Of a stretch of 64,000 nucleotides of DNA, positions 3,792 to 60,681 are shown piece by piece. Location: positions 1,120,001 to 1,184,000 of the forward strand of contig OZ245033.1 of the NCBI GenBank assembly GCA_965224025.1, given 5' to 3'. Source of the DNA: Candidatus Multivorans sp. Its GTDB lineage: Bacteria; Acidobacteriota; Thermoanaerobaculia; Multivoradales; Multivoraceae. Position 1 is the stretch's first letter; every line of letters starts with the position of its first letter. The notes under the pieces were generated by a model. The model was not told the DNA's origin, made no database searches, and worked only from the letters and a program-made list of their open reading frames with translations. Position numbers and translations under genes: made by a program.

Positions 3792-3794
3792 GAG

Positions 3795-3853
3795 GCGAGT
3801 CGCGGCGTCCGCGCCGCGTTGATGCAGAGGAAAGAGGGCGTGTTCCATGCAAG
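3795..3853 (+). mobile_element. 59-bp non-autonomous IS110-related mini element
   Basis: Flanked by ctagg-AG and AG-cttgcgcggcagaa; contains hairpin cgcggcg-tccg-cgccgcg and ends in tgttccatgcaAG, identical to the IS110 right end at 60282-60294. Confidence 0.8.
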
Positions 3854-3894
3854 CTTGCGCGGCAGAACTCTCGGCGGCCGGCGCTTCGCGCCGG

Positions 3895-17005: not shown

Positions 17006-18805
17006 GTGAACCTGGAAACTCCTGGCCACGAGCACAGCGCGGACCGCGTGCTGCTCATCATGGCGACCCGCCTGAAGTGGCTCGCCGCATCGCTTGCGGT
17101 GGGGTTCTTCGTCGTTCTGAGTTCGTATTGGTACTTCCAGATCGTTCGCTCGGAGCACTACTTGCGGTTGGCCGAGAACAACCGGCTGCGGGTCGTCCGC
17201 CTGGAGGCGCCGCGAGGCCTGATCTACGATCGTTCCGGGCGGCTCCTGGTCGAGAATGCGCCCACTTTCCGTCTCTTGATCGACCGCAGCCTGAGCGCCG
17301 ATCTGGACGCCAGCATGACGTTTGCGGCGAAAATCGTGGAACGGGACCAGGAAGAACTGAGGGCTTCGCTCAAGCGCTACCGGGGCGTGGCCCGGGATGT
17401 CCCGGTGCTCCTTGCCGGGGACTTGCAGTTGAGCCAGGTCGCCCGGTTCGAGGTTGCGATTCCGGAGCACCCGGAGTTCGAGATCGCCGCTTCGCGTCGC
17501 CGCCTCTACCGGTACGGCGACCAGACCGCGCATCTTCTGGGGTACCTCAGCGAGCCAACGGCAGCCGAGCAGGATCGGGACCGGACACTGGTTGCCGCCG
17601 ACATGATCGGCCGCAGAGGCGTCGAGCAGTTGCGGGACCGCACGTTGCGCGGGACCGCCGGTGAGCGGACGGTGGTCGTCGACAGCCGCGGCCGCCTTGC
17701 GTCGAGCGAGGATGTCGAACGAACCGACGCCGTGCCGGGAGAGTCCGTCACCCTGACCATCGACCTCAGGTTGCAGCAGGAAGCGCAGAAGCTGCTCGAG
17801 GGCAAGGTCGGAGCGATCGTTGCTCTCGATCCGCGGGACGGTGCGGTTCGGGCGATGGTCTCCTCGCCGTCCTTCGATCCGAATGGCTTTGCCGGCCGTC
17901 TCAACCAGGAGGACTGGGAGCGGATCGTCGGCGCGCCCAACAAACCGCTTCAGAACCGGGCCATCCACAACACCTACCCACCGGGTTCGGTGTTCAAGAT
18001 CGCGATTGCGGTGGCGGCGCTGGCGGATGGACTGATCGATCCGGAGGAACGGATTTACTGCGGCGGCGTCGCCCGGTTGTACAACCGCCGTTGGCGTTGC
18101 TGGCAGTCGAGAGGTCACGGCCGTCTCAACCTCCGGGGCGCCCTCCAGCACTCCTGCGACATCTACTTCTACCGGCAGGGCAGGAAGATCGGGATCGAGA
18201 CGATTGCTCGCTACGCCCGCGTTCTGGGCCTCGGCGAGCGGACCGGCATCGAGTTTCCCGGCGAGCGCGAGGGACTGGTGCCTGATCCGGAGTGGAGTCT
18301 GACGAGCCGGGGGCTGCCCTGGTACCCGGGTGAAACGATCTCGGTTGCGATCGGTCAGGGACCGGTACTGACTTCGCCGCTTCAGATTGCCGCGATGACC
18401 GCGGCGGTGGCCAACGGAGGATCGCGGGTGTGGCCCTACGTGGTGGAGGGTGGAGCACAGCCGCGGGCGCCGATCGAAGTGGATGCCGAGGTGATCGCCT
18501 TTGTCAGGGAGGCATTGGCGAACGTGGTCGCGAATGGGACCGGACGCAGAGCCAAGAGCCCGATGGTGTCGATCGCGGGCAAGACCGGCACCGCCCAGGT
18601 CATCGCTCAGGCGACGTGGACCCGGTCCGAGGATCTCCCCTTCGAGCACGGGGACCACGCCTGGTTCACCTCCTATGCGCCGGTCGAGACGCCGGAGCTG
18701 GTCGTCGTCGTGTTCGTCGAGCACGGAGGACGGGGCGCCGAAGCCGCGGCGCCTCTGGCGAGGCGGATGCACGAGACGTACTTTGGTTCTCCCGTCCAGA
18801 CTTGA
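17006..18805 (+). CDS. mrdA: Penicillin-binding protein 2
   Basis: APRGLIYDR, YPPGSVFK (SxxK), SCD, IGQG and KTGTAQ. Confidence 0.95.
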   Translation: MNLETPGHEHSADRVLLIMATRLKWLAASLAVGFFVVLSSYWYFQIVRSEHYLRLAENNRLRVVRLEAPRGLIYDRSGRLLVENAPTFRLLIDRSLSADLDASMTFAAKIVERDQEELRASLKRYRGVARDVPVLLAGDLQLSQVARFEVAIPEHPEFEIAASRRRLYRYGDQTAHLLGYLSEPTAAEQDRDRTLVAADMIGRRGVEQLRDRTLRGTAGERTVVVDSRGRLASSEDVERTDAVPGESVTLTIDLRLQQEAQKLLEGKVGAIVALDPRDGAVRAMVSSPSFDPNGFAGRLNQEDWERIVGAPNKPLQNRAIHNTYPPGSVFKIAIAVAALADGLIDPEERIYCGGVARLYNRRWRCWQSRGHGRLNLRGALQHSCDIYFYRQGRKIGIETIARYARVLGLGERTGIEFPGEREGLVPDPEWSLTSRGLPWYPGETISVAIGQGPVLTSPLQIAAMTAAVANGGSRVWPYVVEGGAQPRAPIEVDAEVIAFVREALANVVANGTGRRAKSPMVSIAGKTGTAQVIAQATWTRSEDLPFEHGDHAWFTSYAPVETPELVVVVFVEHGGRGAEAAAPLARRMHETYFGSPVQT

Positions 18806-19901
18806 TCTGCGGACTCTGGCGCGCCAGGTCCGTTCCATCTCATGGCAAATCTTCGGCTCAGCGTTCGCTCTGTCCGTGATCGGCCTGCTCCTGATCTCGA
18901 GCGCTTCGTCTGAACTGTCGGCCAACTACGTATCCCGCCAGTCGGTGTGGATCGTCGCGGGCGTGCTGGTCCTGGTCACCGCGGCCTGGGTCGACTACTC
19001 CCTGCTGCTTCGGCACGCCTTCTGGATTTACCTGGTGGCGGTGGCGGCGTTGGCCGCGGTCACGTTCTACGGCCACGAGGCCGGCGGCGCCCGCAGTTGG
19101 ATCGGCATCGGCGGTTTTGGGGGCCAGCCGTCGGACTTCTGCAAGATCGCGACCGTTCTGTTGCTGGCCCGGCGTCTGGCCCTTTCCCAGTCACCGGTTC
19201 CCCCGCGCGGCGGGCTGTGGGCAACGGCGGCGATCGTCGCGGTTCCCGTGCTGCTCATCGCGAGGCAGCCGGACATGGGCGGCGCCCTGATGTTCGTGCC
19301 CGTGCTCGCCGCCATGTTGGCCACCACCGGAGTCAGCGTTCGGTCTGCGCTCGCCGCGGCCGCCGTGGCTTTGGCCCTGGCGGGCGCCCTGTGGGTCTTC
19401 GCGCTGCAGGACTACCAGAAGGAACGGGTCCTGAGCTACTTCCGGCCCCAGGCGGATCCCCTGGGGTCGGGATACCAGGTCCGTCAGAGCAGGATCGCGG
19501 TCGGTTCGGGCCAGGCTCTGGGCAAGGGCTACGGCGAGGGGACGCAGTCCAACCTGCGCTTCCTGCCGACGCCTCACACCGACTTCGTGTTCGCGGTGCT
19601 TGCCGAGGAGTATGGATTCGCCGGGGTCGCCCTCGTCATGGCCCTGTTCCTCCTCTACCTGGGGAACGGCGTCCGCATCGCACTGGCGGCGCGGGATCCG
19701 GCGGGTCTGCTGCTGGCGGTCGGGCTCTTGGCCTTCATCACCGGCCACGTTCTCTACAATACGGCGATGGTGGTCGGCCTGTTGCCGATCACCGGCATTC
19801 CAGTGCCGTTCCTGAGCTACGGCGGTTCCTTCATGCTCTTCTGCTGCGCGGCCACCGGCCTGTTGATCGGCCTCGACCTGCGGCGTTTCGTCAACGTCTG
19901 A
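18783..19901 (+). CDS. rodA: SEDS glycosyltransferase RodA
   Basis: GARSWI, QPSDFCK, QPDMG, GYQ...IAVGSG, HTDF and PFLSYGGS; start approximate. Confidence 0.93.
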   Translation: MVLPSRLDLRTLARQVRSISWQIFGSAFALSVIGLLLISSASSELSANYVSRQSVWIVAGVLVLVTAAWVDYSLLLRHAFWIYLVAVAALAAVTFYGHEAGGARSWIGIGGFGGQPSDFCKIATVLLLARRLALSQSPVPPRGGLWATAAIVAVPVLLIARQPDMGGALMFVPVLAAMLATTGVSVRSALAAAAVALALAGALWVFALQDYQKERVLSYFRPQADPLGSGYQVRQSRIAVGSGQALGKGYGEGTQSNLRFLPTPHTDFVFAVLAEEYGFAGVALVMALFLLYLGNGVRIALAARDPAGLLLAVGLLAFITGHVLYNTAMVVGLLPITGIPVPFLSYGGSFMLFCCAATGLLIGLDLRRFVNV

Positions 19902-19941
19902 TCAGCCTGCCCGCGCAGTCACAACAGGTCGCCCACGTCGC

Positions 19942-21504
19942 ATGAACAGAGAGCTTGCATGGAACAAGTTTCCTTTGCGTCAGCGCGGCGCGGACGCCGC
20001 GACTCGACTCCTGGTGGAGAGCGACGCGCTCCAGACTCGGGTAGCTCTAGTCGAGTCCGGCCGGTTGGTGGAGCTCTTCATCGAGCGCCGAGGGCGCCGG
20101 GGCCTGGTCGGCAACCTCTACAAGGGCCGGGTGCGCCGGGTGCTCCCCGGCATGAGAGCCGCCTTCGTCGATCTCGGACTGGAGCGGGACGGCTACCTCT
20201 GGGTCGAAGACGTGGTCGATGCCGGGCCAGGAGAGCGAGGCCCTGAGCGAAGCTCCGGCCGCGCGGCGGGCCGGGAGGCGTTGCCGCCGATCGACGGCAT
20301 GCTGCGCCGGGGCCAGGATCTGATCGTCCAGGTCACCAAGGACGGGCTCGCGGGGAAGGGAGCGCGCATCACCACCCAGATCACGCTTCCCGGCCGCTAC
20401 CTGGTGTTGACGCCGACCGGCGACCGGGTGGCCATCTCGAGGCGCATCGAGGACGCGGACGAACGGGATCGGCTGAAGGGACTGGTCCCGGCTGGTTGCG
20501 ACGACTCCGCCGCCCTGCCGGGCTGCATCGTGCGTACCGCCGCTGCGGGCGTGGGAGAAGAGCAGATCCAGGCGGAGTACGAGACGCTTGCGGCGACCTG
20601 GCGGCGGATCGAGGAGCGGACGGCGGCCGCGGCCGCGCCGGCTCTGCTCCACCGCGAGGACGAGCTGGATGTACGTGTGATCCGGGACCTTTTCTCCGCC
20701 GATTTCGGCTCTCTGCTCGTGGACGGCGCCGACGCCTACCGGCGGATCGGGGAGTACCTTGGGCGGGTGCAGCCGGAGCTCCTCGAACGGGTCGAGCGGA
20801 CCCGGAGAGGTCTGTTCCAGCGCTACCGGATCGACGACGCGATCGAAGCTGCGCTACGTGACCGCGTGCCGCTTCCGTCGGGTGGCTGCCTGGTGATCAA
20901 CCAGACCGAGGCTCTGGTCGCGATCGACGTCAATACCGGCCGCGACGTCGGCGCCGCGGACTTTGAAGAGACGGTTCTCCAGACCAACCTGGAGGCGGCC
21001 GCGGAGGCGGTACGCCAGATCCGGCTGCGCGATCTGTCCGGCATCCTGATCATCGATCTGATCGACATGGAGCGCGAGGATCATCGCGAGCAGGTGTTCG
21101 CCCGCTTGGAGGCGGAGCTCCAGAAGGACCGCGCCAGACACAGAGTGCTCGAGATCTCGGAATTCGGCCTGGTCCAACTGACCCGCCGGCGCAGCCACGC
21201 GAACCTGGAGAAGCTGCTCACCCGGGACTGCCCCTACTGTCAGGGGGCGGGCCGCATCAAGTCGGTTGCGACGATCTGTCTGGAGCTGCGACGAACCTGT
21301 CTGGCCCGGGCCGGGAGCGGCGCCCGTCAGTTGGCGGTGCGGGTCCACCCTGAGGTCCTGGACGGCCTGCGTGGCGCCGAGTCGGCGGTGCTGGACGGCC
21401 TGCAGGGGGCGTTCGAAGCACCGGTCCTGGTTCAGGGGGCCCCGGAGTTGCATCGCGAGCACTTCGTCGTCGCTGAAGTAGCTGAAGCAGGGGAGAGGAT
21501 CTGA
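19942..21504 (+). CDS. rng: Ribonuclease G (Rne/Rng family) carrying an 18-aa N-terminal insertion
   Basis: GNLYKGRV, AAFVDLG, QVTKD...KGAR, IDVNTG, LRDLSGILIID and CPYC motifs. Confidence 0.93.
   Translation: MNRELAWNKFPLRQRGADAATRLLVESDALQTRVALVESGRLVELFIERRGRRGLVGNLYKGRVRRVLPGMRAAFVDLGLERDGYLWVEDVVDAGPGERGPERSSGRAAGREALPPIDGMLRRGQDLIVQVTKDGLAGKGARITTQITLPGRYLVLTPTGDRVAISRRIEDADERDRLKGLVPAGCDDSAALPGCIVRTAAAGVGEEQIQAEYETLAATWRRIEERTAAAAAPALLHREDELDVRVIRDLFSADFGSLLVDGADAYRRIGEYLGRVQPELLERVERTRRGLFQRYRIDDAIEAALRDRVPLPSGGCLVINQTEALVAIDVNTGRDVGAADFEETVLQTNLEAAAEAVRQIRLRDLSGILIIDLIDMEREDHREQVFARLEAELQKDRARHRVLEISEFGLVQLTRRRSHANLEKLLTRDCPYCQGAGRIKSVATICLELRRTCLARAGSGARQLAVRVHPEVLDGLRGAESAVLDGLQGAFEAPVLVQGAPELHREHFVVAEVAEAGERI
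19956..20009 (-). mobile_element. 54-bp IS110-related mini element inserted in frame in rng
   Basis: Minus strand reads ccagg-AG-tcgagtcgcggcgtccgcgccgcgctgacgcaaaggaaacttgttccatgca-AG-ctctct. Removing it restores MNRELLVESD. Confidence 0.82.
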
Positions 21505-55030: not shown

Positions 55031-57067
55031 CTACTCCGGCAGGCTGAACGCGACGTACTCGCCCCCCGAGGGCCCTCCCGTCCTACCGCCGCCCGCGGCG
55101 ATCACGACGTACTGCTTGCCGTCCACGCTGTAGACGGCCGGTGTCGCGTACGCCGCGGCCGACAGCTTGGTCTCCCACGGGATCTCGCCGTTCCGCGTGT
55201 CGTAGGCGCGGAACTTCTCGTCCGGCGTCGCGGCGATGAAGATGAGGCCGGAGGCCGTCACCACCGGGCCGCCGTAGTTCACGGCGCCGAAGCCGAGATC
55301 GGGGTGCGAGGGATAGTCGCCGAACGGCACCTTCCAGGCGATCTCGCCGGTCGAAAGATCGATCGAGTTCAGCGTGCCCCAGGGCGGGGAGTTGCCGGGC
55401 AGGTTCTCATGGTCGCGCAGGTAGACGTAGCCGCCGAGGACGTAGGCGACCTCGCCTCTGGGCTCGTCGACCTCGGGTTCGGGATCGAGGATGTACGCCT
55501 CGATGGCGCCGAGCTCGACCCGGTTGAGATGGTCGAAGCCCTCCATGCGGCCGCTGCCCTCGCGGACAATGCGGCGAATCTCGGCAAGCTCCATGCGATC
55601 GCCGACGCCGAGCAGGGGGGCCGCCATGTCGGTGCCCTCGAGTTTCAGCCCGTGACACCGGCCGCAGTGCCGCGCATAGGTGCCGTACCGGCTGAAGCCG
55701 ACGGGCACTTCGGTGAGATTCAGAATGCCGGCGACATCGTTCGCATTGACGATCAGATGGTTGGTGTTCGGGTCGAACGCCGAGCCGCCCCACTCGCCGC
55801 CGCCGTCGTACCACGGCATGAAGAGCACGGTGCCGACCTTGGGCGGCGCCCAGGGGCGCAGATCCCAGTCCTTGATCCGCTCCTCGACGAATTCGCGCGC
55901 CGCCGGGGTGCGGTTCGTGATCTCGACGTCCTGCCGACTGATGACCACGGCCGAAAGCGGCTGCGTCGGCGCCGTCACCTCGCCAGGGAGCGTGCTTGGA
56001 ATCGGCGTTTCGATCTCGTGGATGGGGTACATCGACTCGCCGGTCTCCCGGTCGAAGACGTAGAGCTGCCCCGTCTTCGTCGTGATGGCCACGGCATCGA
56101 TCGTCTGGCCGTCGCGTTCGAGCTGAACCAGGGTCGGCGGCGAGGGGTTGTCCTTGTCCCAGAGGTCGTGGCGGACGACCTGAAAGTGCCACGTCAGTTC
56201 GCCGGTGCGCGCGTCGACCGCCACCAGGGAGTCCGAGAACAGGTTGCCGCCCAGGCGGTTCGCGCCGTAGAAGTCGGGGGTCGCCGACCCGGTCGGCGCG
56301 AACAGGATGCCGCGCTCCTCGTCGAGCGCCATGCCGGACCAGACGTTGGCGCCGCCGGCCCGCTCGAGCGATCCTTCGGCCCAGGTCTCGGAACCGAAAT
56401 CGCCCGGCGCCGGAATGGTGTCGAACTGCCAGACCAGGCTGCCGTCCACCGCGCTGAAGGCCCGAATCGAACCTGGGTACGCGTTGGCGTCCTCGTTGGT
56501 TGAGAAGCCCAAGATCAGCTTGTCCTCGAAGACGACGCCGGGCACGGTGATGTAGATGCGACCGTCTCGGTCCACGTCGGGCGTGAGGTCGAGTCCGCCG
56601 CCGTCGCCGAAGCTCTCGACCGGCGTGCCGTCGTCTGCGTTGAGCGCGATCAGGTCCTTGCCGTGAGTGAAGAAGAGGCGCCTGTCGTCGCCCTTCTCCC
56701 ACCACATCAGTCCCCGCTGGGCGTTGCCCGGCAGGCCCAGGTCGGAGCGCCAGATCTCCTCGCCCGTGGCCGCGTTCAGGGCGAACGCCTCGAGCTGGGG
56801 CGACAGCGCGTAGAGCACCCCGTCGATGACCAGGGGGCTCGTGTACATCGTGGCGCCCGCTCCCCGGGGCTCGCCCGAGTCATAGACCCAGGCGACTTCG
56901 AGCTGGCTCACGTTGTCCCGGTTGATCTCGGTCAGCGGGCTGTAGTGCTGGCGGCCCGAGTCGCCGAGGTAGACGGGCCAGTCTTCATCGGTGGGACCGC
57001 AAGCAGTGATCAGAAACGCCACCACGAGGGGCGCGGCGCGGTTCGAGGCCGGTCGAGCGGATCGCAT
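55031..57067 (-). CDS. PQQ-dependent (glucose/quinate-type) dehydrogenase lipoprotein with internal c-type heme domain
   Basis: Lipobox ITAC; YSPL.EIN..NV..L..AW, GGANVWSG, HDLWD.D, CGRCH, PPWGTL and ATPAVY..DGKQY. Confidence 0.88.
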   Translation of the reverse strand: MRSARPASNRAAPLVVAFLITACGPTDEDWPVYLGDSGRQHYSPLTEINRDNVSQLEVAWVYDSGEPRGAGATMYTSPLVIDGVLYALSPQLEAFALNAATGEEIWRSDLGLPGNAQRGLMWWEKGDDRRLFFTHGKDLIALNADDGTPVESFGDGGGLDLTPDVDRDGRIYITVPGVVFEDKLILGFSTNEDANAYPGSIRAFSAVDGSLVWQFDTIPAPGDFGSETWAEGSLERAGGANVWSGMALDEERGILFAPTGSATPDFYGANRLGGNLFSDSLVAVDARTGELTWHFQVVRHDLWDKDNPSPPTLVQLERDGQTIDAVAITTKTGQLYVFDRETGESMYPIHEIETPIPSTLPGEVTAPTQPLSAVVISRQDVEITNRTPAAREFVEERIKDWDLRPWAPPKVGTVLFMPWYDGGGEWGGSAFDPNTNHLIVNANDVAGILNLTEVPVGFSRYGTYARHCGRCHGLKLEGTDMAAPLLGVGDRMELAEIRRIVREGSGRMEGFDHLNRVELGAIEAYILDPEPEVDEPRGEVAYVLGGYVYLRDHENLPGNSPPWGTLNSIDLSTGEIAWKVPFGDYPSHPDLGFGAVNYGGPVVTASGLIFIAATPDEKFRAYDTRNGEIPWETKLSAAAYATPAVYSVDGKQYVVIAAGGGRTGGPSGGEYVAFSLPE

Positions 57068-57169
57068 GGCGAGCAATCGTACTTGCTCGTCGGAGACTGC
57101 TTCTTCCTCGGAGTCGCGTGTATCCTGAGCGGTACAAGTCCAAACGCGGTTCGAAAGGGGAACGACCCG

Positions 57170-58639
57170 ATGAAGAGGCTCACCCTGTCATCCATGCGTC
57201 CGATGACGGACGCATGGACTGCTTCACGAGTGGCGCGGATCGCGCCACTCGGGTTCGTTTTCTCGAGCTTCCTGCTGGCGGCGACGGCTGCCGCGCAGGA
57301 GCCACCGAACATCGTCCTGCTGTTCGCCGACGACCTCGGCTACGGCGCCATCTCCGCTTACGGAGGCGCCGGGATCCCGACGCCGAACATCGACTCGCTC
57401 GGCGAGGACGGAGTGCGCTTCGTGTCCGGCTACATGACCGCGCCGGTCTGCAACCCGTCGCGCAACGGCCTGATCACCGGCCGCTACCAGCAGCGCTGGG
57501 GCAAGGAGCTGAACTCCCAGACCGTACCGCCGATCGGCGCTGCCAGGGGGACTCTCGGCATCCACCACCAAACGATCGGCGACGCGCTCCAGACCGCCGG
57601 CTACACGAACGCTGCGGTCGGCAAGTGGCAATTGGGGATGCGGCGGCTCCTCCACCCGCTCGACCGCGGCTTCGACTACTTCTACGGCATGCCGTCGGGC
57701 ATGAACTACGTCGACCCGAGCTGGCCCGGCGCTCACGCGCTGGAGATGAAGCCGGTCACCCGAGGAAGTCCGGACCGCATCGTCGCGATGTTCAAGGGCC
57801 GCGAGGAGGACGAGCTCAAGGAGTACCAGACCACCCAGCTCGCCCGCGAGGGAACCGACTTCATCGACCGCAACAAGGACAACCCCTTCTTCCTCTACCT
57901 CGCCTTCTACGCGGTGCATGCTCCGATGCAGGTGATGGACGAGCACTACCAGCGCTTCCCGGACTTCGACGACCAGTACCGGCGCGTGTACGCCGGCATG
58001 GTCAGCGCGCTGGACGACGCCGTCGGCATGGTCCTGGCCAAGCTCGAGGAACACGGTTTGGCCGACAACACGCTGGTCATCTTCACCGCCGACAACGGCG
58101 CCATGTCCACGCAGGACACCGAGCGGATTCACAACAGCCCGCTGATCGGCCACAAGCGGAACCTGTACGAGGGCGGCATCCGGGTGCCCTTCCTGATGCG
58201 CTTCCCCGGCCGCATTCCCGCGGGCACGGTCTACGAGCACCCGATCAGCTCGCTGGACATCTTCGCCACTTCGGTGAGCCTGGCGGCGGTGCCGGACGTG
58301 GAGCGCTACCAGCTCGACGGCGTCGATCTGTTGCCGTACCTCGCCGGCGAGCAGGAGGGCGCGCCGCACGAGTACCTGTTCTGGCGCTCGGGGCCGAACG
58401 CCGCGGTCCGCCACGGTTCCTGGAAGCTCCTGATGGCTGGAGGCCTGGAGCGGCTCTACGACGTCGACCGGGATTCGAGCGAATCAGAGGACCTGGCCGC
58501 CGCGAACCCGGATATCGTCGCGAAGCTGAAGGAGGCGTTCGCGCGCTGGAACGAGGAGATGGAGGACGGCCGGATGTCACCGCCCGCCCGGCGCGCGACG
58601 ACGACCTACAACGGCGACACCATCGAGTGGCACATCTAG
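57170..58639 (+). CDS. Secreted Cys-type arylsulfatase-family sulfatase
   Basis: Signal peptide; PNIVLLFADDLGYG, CNPSR (CxPxR), GKW, DNG and YEGGIRVP. Confidence 0.92.
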   Translation: MKRLTLSSMRPMTDAWTASRVARIAPLGFVFSSFLLAATAAAQEPPNIVLLFADDLGYGAISAYGGAGIPTPNIDSLGEDGVRFVSGYMTAPVCNPSRNGLITGRYQQRWGKELNSQTVPPIGAARGTLGIHHQTIGDALQTAGYTNAAVGKWQLGMRRLLHPLDRGFDYFYGMPSGMNYVDPSWPGAHALEMKPVTRGSPDRIVAMFKGREEDELKEYQTTQLAREGTDFIDRNKDNPFFLYLAFYAVHAPMQVMDEHYQRFPDFDDQYRRVYAGMVSALDDAVGMVLAKLEEHGLADNTLVIFTADNGAMSTQDTERIHNSPLIGHKRNLYEGGIRVPFLMRFPGRIPAGTVYEHPISSLDIFATSVSLAAVPDVERYQLDGVDLLPYLAGEQEGAPHEYLFWRSGPNAAVRHGSWKLLMAGGLERLYDVDRDSSESEDLAAANPDIVAKLKEAFARWNEEMEDGRMSPPARRATTTYNGDTIEWHI

Positions 58640-58731
58640 GAGTGTCCGCAGCGTTGTCGCTGCGCTGTCGCGCAGGGAACAGGCAGCGAGTAGCCAACGT
58701 TACAGCGGCGTCGTGGGTTCATAGAGTTGGC

Positions 58732-58887
58732 CGCGCTGGGCAGCGAGGCCGCGCAGGCACTGGTGTGTTGGCGCCCGACTAGGAGTTTGGCCCGGACCGT
58801 GATCGGCGCTCTGACGCTGGCGGCGCGGCTTGTGTCGCGACCCCGTATGCAAGATTGAGCTTTTCGCCGCGGTCTCTGCCCAGCGCG
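58732..58887 (+). ncRNA. Candidate IS110 bridge/seek RNA
   Basis: Long stem (58732-58753 with 58868-58887) enclosing ctaggagt (58779-58786, target-left plus core) and atgcaag (58847-58853, right end plus core). Confidence 0.65.
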
Positions 58888-58920
58888 ACGATTGGATTCC
58901 ACATCTACGGGAGGCAGGGG

Positions 58921-60240
58921 ATGGCAAAGCGGAAGGCGGAGCGTCTGGAAGTCGTTCACCCGGATTGCGCCGGTGTGGACGTAGGCAAGCGCAAGCACTA
59001 CGTGGCGGTGGCCCCGTCGCGTTTCGAGCGGCCGGTGCGCAATTTCTCGTCGTTCACGGAGGACCTCGAGGTGATGGCCTCGTGGCTTCAGGAGTGCGGC
59101 GTGCGTGAGGTGGCGCTGGAGTCGACGGGGGTGTACTGGATTCCGGTGTTCGAGGTGCTGGACCGGGCGGGGTTCGAGGTGCATCTGGTGAATCCTCGGG
59201 CGACCAAGCAGGTGAGTGGCCGCAAGAGTGACGTTCTGGACTGCCAGTGGATCCGGCAGTTGATGAGCTACGGGCTCCTGCGCGGTGCGTTTCGCGCGCC
59301 GGACGAGTTGTGTCCGCTGCGTTCGTACACGCGGCAGCGCGCCCAGTTGGTCCGCGACCGCAGCCGCGCGGTGCAGCACATCCAGAAGGCTCTGGTGCAG
59401 ATGAACGTGCAGTTGGACAACGTGCTGAGCGACATCATGGGCAAGACCGGCCAGTTGATCGTGCGCGCGATCGTCGCCGGCGAGCGCGACGGCGCGGCGC
59501 TGGCCCGTCACCGGGACGGTCGCTGCAAGGCTGGTCCGGCTGTGATCGCGGCGAGTTTGCAAGGCAACTGGCGAGACGAGCACCTGTTCGCTCTGGGCCA
59601 GGCGCTGGCCCGCTACGACATGCTGCAAGGCCAGATCGAGATGTGCGAGAAGCGCATCGACGCCGAGCTCGACGGCCTGGCCCAAGACGGCGTCGAGGAC
59701 GCGCCGCCGCCCGGTTCGAAGGCGCGCGAGCGCGCCCTGCGGAAGCGGCTGCATCGCATGCTCGGCGTGGACCTGGTCGCCATTCCGACGGTCGGCGTCG
59801 AAACCGCGCTGACCTTCGCCGCTGAGATCGGCCCGGACCTGTCCCGGTTTCCCTCGCAGGGCAACTTCTGCTCGTGGCTGTGTCTGGCTCCACCGACCAA
59901 CATCAGCGGCGACAAACGGCTGAACGGCCCTCCCGTGAAGCAGACCAACCGGGTCGGCCAGACGCTGCGCCAAGCCGCCACCACAGCCCGCAACAGCAAG
60001 ACCGCCATCGGAGCCTCTCACCGCCGGCGTCTCCAGCACATGGAGAAGGCGAAGGCCATCAAGGCCACCGCTCATCAACTCGGCCGACTGATCTACGCCA
60101 TGCTGACCCACGGCGAAGAGTACGTCGAGCGCGACCTCGCCGAAATGGAGGCCGTCCGACGCGAACGACAAATCAGAAACCTGCAGCGTCAGGCCCGCCG
60201 CCTGAATCTGGCTCTCGTGCCGACCGAACATGCCGCCTGA
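58921..60240 (+). CDS. IS110 family DEDD recombinase/transposase
   Basis: GVDVG, ALESTGVYW, KSDVLD, IPTVG, RFPS and PPTNISG; GGGAGG RBS upstream. Confidence 0.95.
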   Translation: MAKRKAERLEVVHPDCAGVDVGKRKHYVAVAPSRFERPVRNFSSFTEDLEVMASWLQECGVREVALESTGVYWIPVFEVLDRAGFEVHLVNPRATKQVSGRKSDVLDCQWIRQLMSYGLLRGAFRAPDELCPLRSYTRQRAQLVRDRSRAVQHIQKALVQMNVQLDNVLSDIMGKTGQLIVRAIVAGERDGAALARHRDGRCKAGPAVIAASLQGNWRDEHLFALGQALARYDMLQGQIEMCEKRIDAELDGLAQDGVEDAPPPGSKARERALRKRLHRMLGVDLVAIPTVGVETALTFAAEIGPDLSRFPSQGNFCSWLCLAPPTNISGDKRLNGPPVKQTNRVGQTLRQAATTARNSKTAIGASHRRRLQHMEKAKAIKATAHQLGRLIYAMLTHGEEYVERDLAEMEAVRRERQIRNLQRQARRLNLALVPTEHAA

Positions 60241-60294
60241 ATCGCGCAACCTGCGCTGCCAACAAGGAACCCCTACCCGTTTGTTCCATGCAAG

Positions 60295-60344
60295 TCTGCG
60301 CGGCAGAAACGCAACATGGTGAGTTCTGGCGCGCAGACTCCTGG
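60295..60344. repeat. Remainder of the palindromic (REP-like) IS110 target, including an unoccupied inverted copy
   Basis: tctgcgcggcagaa and ttctggcgcgcagactcctgg (reverse complement ccaggAGtctgcgcgccagaa). Confidence 0.75.
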
Positions 60345-60681
60345 CGAGGCTTCGCCTCAGACCGACGAGCATGTCCTTGCGGGCTACGCGAGCCGACGTA
60401 TCGATGCATGGCTCTGGCTGAAACTTGCCTCAACTGTAAAGACCACGCTCGTTCAAGGAGTCTAGTGAGGTGGGGGCTGGGGCCAAACACGGAGCTGCGA
60501 CGGGTTGGCGGCTCTAGCCCGCATGCCTCGCCGATCCTCTTGGTGTGGATCCTCGTTCGGCGGGGATAGACTTCAGTCCCTTGCCGGGGCTCTGCAGTGC
60601 CGTGAGATGGCCTGCCCTCGCTCCGTAAAGCGGACGCCTCCGACCGGAGACGTTCCCTGAAGCAGGGAGAACAAGATCGAG

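Follow-up and report, generated by a model that had tools for sequence, protein, structure and literature searches.

The question raised by this locus is whether a short mobile sequence lodged in the first codons of an RNase gene has become part of the enzyme, and by what route it arrived there. The gene, a putative RNase G gene (rng below), occupies positions 19942..21504 (+ strand) of a 64,000-nucleotide stretch of the genome of Candidatus Multivorans sp., the whole of which we call the window (G000:C1:1120001-1184000, where G000 is this genome and C1 its contig OZ245033.1; positions refer to the window unless a contig is named). The original prediction, made from the sequence alone, held that a 54-bp mini element of the IS110 family of insertion sequences (IS) had entered the start of rng at a near-cognate target and added exactly 18 amino acids, that an RNA-guided element had in this way donated peptide sequence, and that scarless excision could in principle toggle two protein isoforms. 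Our overall reading, to which we give a probability of roughly 0.7, is that a non-autonomous unit of the IS110 kind was inserted into rng in trans and under guidance, and that its 18 amino acids are translated.

The 54 extra bp lie between rng codons 5 and 6 (19956-20009) and consist of a 52-bp element and a duplicated 2-bp core; writing the insert as 19956-20009 is equivalent to counting the 52-bp element plus one core and denotes the same 54 bp. The element proper (19956..20007, - strand) has a left arm, TCGAGTCGCGGCGTCCGCGCCGCGCTGACGCAAAGGAAAC, with a G+C hairpin and a right arm, TTGTTCCATGCA, and belongs to a 54-bp subfamily without AGGGC. Read along the - strand, where the core is AG (CT on the + strand), the left target CCAGG (20010-20014) stands before the left copy of the core (20008..20009), and CTCTCTGTTCAT, the rng start read backwards, stands after the right copy (19954..19955). 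On the + strand the gene reads ATG AAC AGA GAG CT, then the insert (from T GCA TGG to ACT CGA CT), then C CTG GTG GAG. The predicted 18 in-frame codons without a stop are thus present in the sequence, encoding AWNKFPLRQRGADAATRL plus a regenerated Leu, and precise removal of the 54 bp gives MNRELLVESDALQTRVALVE, the typical N terminus of this enzyme family that had been anticipated. The open frame itself is weak evidence because five of the six frames through the rng copy are open (each of the antisense frames and, of the sense frames, two), as expected by chance.

Comparison with relatives identifies the 54 bp as an insertion relative to the orthologs examined. An rng ortholog was found in 31 of 31 genomes (G000 included) in a genome search, and 5' ends were examined in 17 same-genus orthologs and one from another genus, the split ortholog of G008 being left out. 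All 17 same-genus orthologs begin M[N/H/D/R]RELLVE[S/G]D with zero extra residues and a conserved ATG position, in keeping with the expected 18-residue gap. The closest ortholog among those examined (L002, from G016) starts ATGAACAGAGAGCTCCTGGTGGAA, exactly the predicted empty site, and its DNA reads ATGAACAGAGAG-CT-CCTGGTGGAA, identical to the sequence predicted by removing the 54 bp. When a large protein collection was queried with residues 1-60, eight of eight homologs were without the 18 residues, including ones 97% identical over the aligned part, and orthologs in named relatives ('Candidatus Multivorans sp.', Thermoanaerobaculia and Acidobacteria metagenome-assembled genomes), 91% identical, matched from residue 23 only. 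Contigs from public sequencing runs also carry the empty site, both in a relative, about 6% diverged, in the same sample and in an organism B (run X3); in these, ATGGACAGAGAG is followed directly by CTCCTGGTG or CTTCTGGTG. For the filled site, an own-strain contig with 0 differences (X1 record 2, 19881-19997) spans the junction 19955/19956; at the junction 20009/20010 own-strain coverage reaches only 25 letters into the element, below the 31 needed for bridging. In runs X1 and X2, searched with window positions 19700-20300, the relative diverged by about 6%, with its empty rng site, had a higher summed contig depth than this strain. The public runs included no RNA data set with this sequence.

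The insert is one member of a dispersed family. It was matched elsewhere in the genome at 98% identity over 64 bp (blastn, E 7e-28) and at about two dozen further places, and a census with the left arm returned 29 matches, 24 of them with a recognisable right end; one hybrid variant was left out, leaving 23 copies. Their lengths, counted as element plus one core, are 54 bp (four copies), 55 (one), 57 (four), 58 (three), 59 (ten) and 61 (one), and the family consensus in element orientation is C[T/C]AGG-AG-TCGAGTCGCGGCGTCCGCGCCGCGCTGACGCACAGGAAAC(AGGGC)TTGTTCCATGCA-AG. Tandem joins (mini to mini at C1:3516473-3516589 and full-length IS to mini at C1:5044164/5044166), in which CATGCAAG abuts TCGAG directly, fix the boundary of the unit, with a 2-bp AG core on each side. 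Loss of AGGGC is common to the rng copy and the copies at C1:704045 and C1:527086, which are unrelated loci, and the occurrence of an identical 54-bp variant without AGGGC at three such places argues that this variant has itself moved. The 28-nt arm (at most 2 mismatches) was detected in 26 of 41 same-genus genomes, our own included, with up to 31 matches in one genome, while a reversed-arm control in the same search gave 0 matches. The units proper, 52-57 bp long and dispersed, carry no transposase, and both filled and empty sites are seen at rng and at C1:2351306. Since their ends in register are identical at only 5 of 20 positions, that is, without terminal inverted repeats, they fall outside the strict definition of a MITE, a transposable element of the miniature inverted-repeat kind, and we prefer the term mini element. 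The hairpin is visible by eye and has no energetic signal: RNA folding of the element region was no better than shuffles on either strand (z -0.75 and z +0.46). A promoter and terminator scan of 19600-20200 detected nothing.

The copies form a non-autonomous family that appears, from its core, its target and its ends, to be linked to an IS110-family element. The full-length element in the window (58643..60292, + strand; 1650 bp between cores at 58641-58642 and 60293-60294) carries a transposase gene (58921..60240) whose product matches DEDD_Tnp_IS110 (E 6.2e-25) and Transposase_20 (E 3e-11), both above the curated Pfam cut-offs, and it is one of 14 full-length copies in the genome, which are at least 99.3% identical. 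All 14 have CTAGG-AG before them and end in ...TTTGTTCCATGCA-AG, with the AG core at both junctions in 14 of 14 and without terminal inverted repeats (15 of 40 positions identical in register). Its transposase domains, its lack of inverted repeats, the core at both junctions and a target resembling repetitive extragenic palindromic (REP) sequences place the element in the IS110 family. The mini element has the same AG core and the same C[T/C]AGG left flank, and the 12 nt with which it reaches the core match the right end of the window IS exactly, which bears out the shared end first noted in the 54-bp insert.

At the left the likeness is looser: 25 of 37 aligned positions are identical and the first five bases inside the core are TCGAG in the mini element and TGTCC in the IS, which makes the mini element a relative of the resident IS and rules out a simple deletion derivative of it. 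A 15th copy (C1:2129243-2130580), 84% identical overall and 85% in its transposase, has the family right end; it may be defective or a different family member, and its unrelated left side rules it out as the parent. The sequences following the mini elements at C1:2780522 and C1:5031465 were likewise considered as a parent and rejected, being further mini-like units rather than full elements. Longer mini-like units at C1:2780581-2780690, C1:3111600 and C1:1429045 have a left arm closer to that of the full-length IS, another internal hairpin (GGCGTCCGGATGCGGGC...) and the same right end, and one such unit stands in tandem with a 59-bp mini element.

The target preferences of the two kinds of element overlap in their left half. 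The IS usually targets a REP-like repeat with the sequence C[T/C]AGGAGnyTGCGCsGCAGAAC (3854-3868 and 60295-60309 are examples from the window); its downstream flank reads nnTGCGC in 10 of 14 copies as scored, usually continuing sGCAGAAC, and this downstream motif occurs 50 times in the genome, with about 40 unoccupied sites of the form C[T/C]AGGAGnnTGCGC. The left targets of the 23 mini elements are CTAGGAG (10), CCAGGAG (5), a single variant of these (6) and tandem joins (2), and the right flanks of copies outside REP-like sites have no common sequence. A full REP-like target is occupied by the second mini element of the window (57 bp proper, 3795..3851, + strand; cores 3793-3794 and 3852-3853), with CCTAGG-AG on one side and AG-CTTGCGCGGCAGAAC on the other. 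The rng site, read on the element strand as CTCCACCAGG-AG-CTCTCTGTTC, agrees with the usual target through CCAGG-AG-CT and not beyond. The proposed near-cognate target is therefore borne out, as a match to the left half and core of the usual one, and the rng insertion fits a half-match off-target event, of the kind described for IS621 in a 2026 preprint, in which elements insert where no more than half of the guide finds a match. The CTAG of the REP-like repeat often holds the TAG stop codon of the preceding gene, for example at 58637-58639, the end of the open reading frame (ORF) 56663..58639.

Two candidate guide segments lie in the left non-coding end of the IS on its + strand: CTAGGAG (58779..58785), identical to the left target and core, and ATGCAAG (58847..58853), identical to the left donor and core. 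They are in the same sense and 68 nt apart, which agrees with Durrant 2024, where the left guides are described as complementary to the bottom strand and hence as having the top-strand sequence, with the core. Among 20,000 dinucleotide shuffles of the IS left end, CTAGGAG appeared in 286, ATGCAAG in 164 and both in order in 0. A guide reading CUAGGAG would also fit CCAGGAG, because U can stand opposite G, giving one G-U wobble. From these two 7-mers we infer that RNA would have guided the insertion at rng.

The proposed sequence of events is that a 52-bp non-autonomous element of the IS110 kind, consisting of little beyond two donor arms around the core, would have entered rng between codons 5 and 6 and duplicated the 2-bp core, after a transposase and a bridge RNA from a full-length family member, acting in trans, had recognised CCAGG-AG in the gene. 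Such mobilisation in trans would parallel the 22-bp donor that recombines with a bridge RNA in trans in Durrant 2024. Several observations weigh against this part of the reading. The resident IS may not be the mobiliser, given TCGAG in place of TGTCC, and this genome yielded no full-length element with the left arm of the mini element. Of the four guide segments to be expected, only two could be placed in the IS left end; for the right guides, reverse-complement matches there gave ambiguous candidates (GGCT at 58827-30, GAGCT at 58857-61 and CGACT at 58776-80), of which we make no claim. The left end folded whole gave no stable consensus (z +0.61), and an Rfam scan of 58500-60500 returned no match with E below 0.06. 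CCAGGAG also occurs 2077 times in the genome, so that a 7-nt match alone fails to explain why rng was hit at all, and in two species.

The second species is represented by G031. When 42 same-genus genomes, our own included, were searched at the DNA level with 19902-20101, only G031 matched straight through the insert; in 16 other genomes the match began only at the far edge of the insert, and in two of these (G052 and G046) the near side adjoins and the aligned rng sites are empty. The G031 variant (G031:C83:8433-8611, locus L052) is 58 bp long, keeps AGGG, has a degenerate right end and by alignment occupies exactly the same position. Either the rng site is favoured or it is among the few in-gene places where a hit survives. 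Just upstream of its rng ATG, L002 of G016 has a tandem duplication of about 57 bp of the rng 5' end, with a second atgaacagagagctcctggtggaaagcgat... directly before the real start; the rng 5' site seems liable to more than one kind of rearrangement.

Whether the 18 residues reach the protein depends on where translation starts. We consider that it probably begins at the ancestral ATG (19942) and includes them, as the insert is 54 bp long with an open frame and as the ATG and the upstream region are unchanged relative to those of relatives. RNase G would then start at 19942 with its first four residues (MNRE) replaced by MNRELAWNKFPLRQRGADAATR. The new junction reads ...ATR-LLVES, which rebuilds the conserved first strand, and the insert would accordingly behave as a tolerated N-terminal extension; the alignment of the product with RNase E in the PDB (E 4e-79) begins at query residue 22 (RLLVES). 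N-terminally extended RNase G of E. coli is said to behave differently, which is not used as evidence here. An AlphaFold2 model from a 9-sequence alignment (mean pLDDT 45, pTM 0.28) was unusable, and nothing is drawn from it.

The alternative that survives best, which we regard as unlikely though a serious competitor, is that the insert is real but absent from the protein: translation would start at GTG (20014..20016, + strand), in frame just past the insert, or at TTG (19975-19977, + strand), in frame within it, the element would be a 5' leader, and the ATG frame would be unused or minor. The start codon of rng is deduced from sequence, both alternative starts are at hand, and by reading the sequence we saw no Shine-Dalgarno-like motif at any of the three candidates, so that no ribosome-binding motif favours the ATG. 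The frame through the element, open in five of six cases by chance, adds little in favour of the longer protein. G031 tells more directly against the ATG. Its 58-bp copy throws the ancestral ATG out of frame (MDTELA, then TGA after six codons), and its rng is nevertheless open for 493 codons from the GTG and 82% identical to the gene studied here; rng can therefore be served by another start. Orthologs in L020 (another genus) and P0007 may, moreover, begin at the M directly before L[V/I]ES, in which case the residues ahead of that strand would be dispensable. Against this alternative, a ribosome starting at the unchanged ATG reads straight through the in-frame insert, and a protein begun at GTG would read M-ESDALQ, without the two Leu of ELLVE that all 17 same-genus orthologs examined possess. 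The only canonical in-frame start noticed upstream of LLVES in G031 is a TTG at the element junction, and its use would likewise put element-encoded residues into the protein. We thus caution that the donation of peptide sequence put forward in the original prediction is well supported for the family, through a second copy described below, while for rng the 18 residues are probable on sequence grounds and G031 adds weight to a downstream start.

The presence of elements at exactly one position in two species also allows a single old insertion, made in a shared ancestor and later removed exactly from most lineages, with a site that remains reversible. Recombination of the IS110 type between two cores would restore the target exactly, as a general property and in the excision assays of Durrant 2024. 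We consider this history very improbable and that of two independent insertions, in G000 and in G031, highly probable, because the rng copy here has hardly diverged from the other copies in this genome: it differs from the C1:704045 copy at one of 64 aligned bases (98.4%, shared flanks included) and so looks recent. The two variants are also distinct: the one here has 54 bp and no AGGGC, the one in G031 has 58 bp and a degenerate right end. The orthologs of G016 (86% identical to this rng), G010 (83%) and the named relatives at 91% are at least as close as that of G031, yet empty. Two preprints report that the donor copy is kept when IS110 elements move, and no own-strain contig without the 54 bp was found among the public-run contigs, in which rare variants are dropped, so that its absence there does not show that excision never occurs. 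The proposed toggling of two isoforms by scarless excision accordingly finds no support.

That the 54 bp are a host REP-like repeat unrelated to the IS, whose shared ends are merely the IS target, would draw on the known insertion of IS110-family elements into REP sequences and on the REP-like target of this IS, but it can hardly be right, since that target is a different sequence left unoccupied about 40 times, since the empty sites at rng and at C1:2351306 lack the whole unit, both ends included, with only the AG core duplicated, and since the shared right end falls inside the limits of the IS that 14 differently flanked copies define.

The case for translation of a mini element is stronger at a second gene, outside the window. 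The copy at C1:2351306-2351362 (L029/L040) is 57 bp long, runs in the sense direction, is the most diverged of the family and lies in a 1077-codon stop-free frame, where the host protein has the sequence FFFRQE-SSRGVCAALTHGKRPAQCK-AGFDW. The insert is missing from eight same-genus orthologs and from a paralog on contig C2, all with FFFRQ[G/E/A]AGFDW, the paralog keeping CGCCAGG-AG-GCCGG, which is another CCAGG-AG site. G012 carries the insert as well, in diverged form. The copy is an old, inherited one, in frame in the middle of the gene for a conserved secreted protein of about 1000 residues in two species. It is also the only copy with a coding signature in codon-position G+C on both sides. 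With the frame intact, that signature on both sides and two species sharing the insert, the presence of its peptide in the protein seems nearly forced. The host protein found no family in NCBIfam, and its Pfam match to LolA_like (E 0.009) is below the cut-off.

Other copies touch coding regions at their edges. Of 19 long frames through mini copies, three have Pfam domains (MFS_1, Calx-beta and epoxide hydrolase), all downstream of the element, and in the MFS and epoxide-hydrolase cases the element lies upstream of the likely start. Nine copies, counting rng and both units of the 3516473-3516589 tandem, stand at the immediate 5' edge of a coding region with an open frame, and in eight cases the orientation is antisense to the gene; besides rng these are at C1:690781, 1123795 (window 3795), 1504053, 3516473, 4516181, 4541739 and 4862549. 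Some of them may be further N-terminal extensions or 5' leaders.

The 520-codon host ORF, counted from the ancestral ATG, encodes a member of the RNase E/G family (Pfam RNase_E_G, E 1e-92), and three features suggest the putative name RNase G, or rng-like: its size, its neighbours mrdA and rodA, and the existence of another, longer paralog at C1:4080449. Upstream of rng lie mrdA (PBP2-like, 17006..18805) and then a rodA-like ORF ending at 19901. In E. coli, rng is non-essential, and rescue of rne mutants is possible through overproduction of RNase G or of its derivatives.

Parts of this picture have precedents. MITEPpu9 of Pseudomonas putida is, like the mini elements, a non-autonomous unit with ends resembling those of an IS110-family element that targets REP sequences (ISPpu9); its copies occur both beside the IS and alone, and it is thought to move by the transposase acting in trans. 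Its authors call it 'MITE-like'. It differs in carrying a small-RNA gene, ssr9, whereas the 52-57 bp units here carry arms only, and the passages that describe it mention no in-frame insertion in a gene, whereas a unit lies in frame in rng. IS621, as described in Durrant 2024 and in the half-match preprint, shares with the elements here a DEDD transposase, a 2-bp core common to donor and target and a natural target of the REP type; its left guides read like the top strand, as do the candidate guides here, and it would share with the mini element the working of a small donor (about 22 bp) in trans and half-match off-target insertion. Its core is CT, whereas the core here is AG, and the guidance proposed here draws on two 7-mers, by sequence alone. 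Relative to IS621, this locus adds natural minimal donors and a hit inside a gene.

A third comparison is with small in-frame repeats that are presumably the Rickettsia palindromic elements. As reported by Ogata 2000 and others (as cited in Delihas 2011), these are, like the rng insert, short hairpin repeats that lie in conserved genes, are absent in orthologs and add peptide; no RNA-guided transposase partner is known for them, whereas here a parent family, a core and a target rule can be named. In the CazIS110 preprint, a full-length element of another organism is reported to move by copy-out and by direct transfer, the latter passing on the top strand without a circle, and the donor copy stays. 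By analogy, direct transfer of that type would explain the movement of a 52-57 bp unit too short for a double-stranded circle. In-frame insertion of repeats (Delihas 2011) and MITE-like units linked to IS110 elements (MITEPpu9) are thus already in print; our literature search turned up no description of an in-frame, IS110-derived unit within a gene, nor of units of such small size, although supplements may hold cases. New here are the G031 variant at the same rng site and the second in-frame copy in the middle of a gene, shared with G012.

On a broader view, which we offer as tentative and would not favour, the 52-57 bp units would be natural minimal donors for a bridge recombinase, spreading genus-wide by strand transfer that needs no double-stranded circle, and the first codons of rng (GAG CTC CTG GTG; on the other strand CACCAGG-AG-CTC) would be a recurrent secondary site hit independently in at least two species. 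Copies with a length that is a multiple of three might be kept within genes as new peptide, so that an RNA-guided element would repeatedly edit the N terminus or the start choice of a housekeeping RNase. In their own right, the amplified and apparently minimal donors of this genus (23 copies in our genome, and as many as 31 matches to the arm in a relative) are a natural parallel to the laboratory donor of 22 bp that works in trans, and they raise the question of how a unit too short for a double-stranded circle moves. The rng hit is a natural off-target insertion at a left-half match, a class of event that figures in present discussion as the chief problem of specificity when these enzymes serve for genome editing. 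With two copies in conserved genes, one of them kept in two species, the sequences suggest that such events can add peptide rather than destroy proteins.

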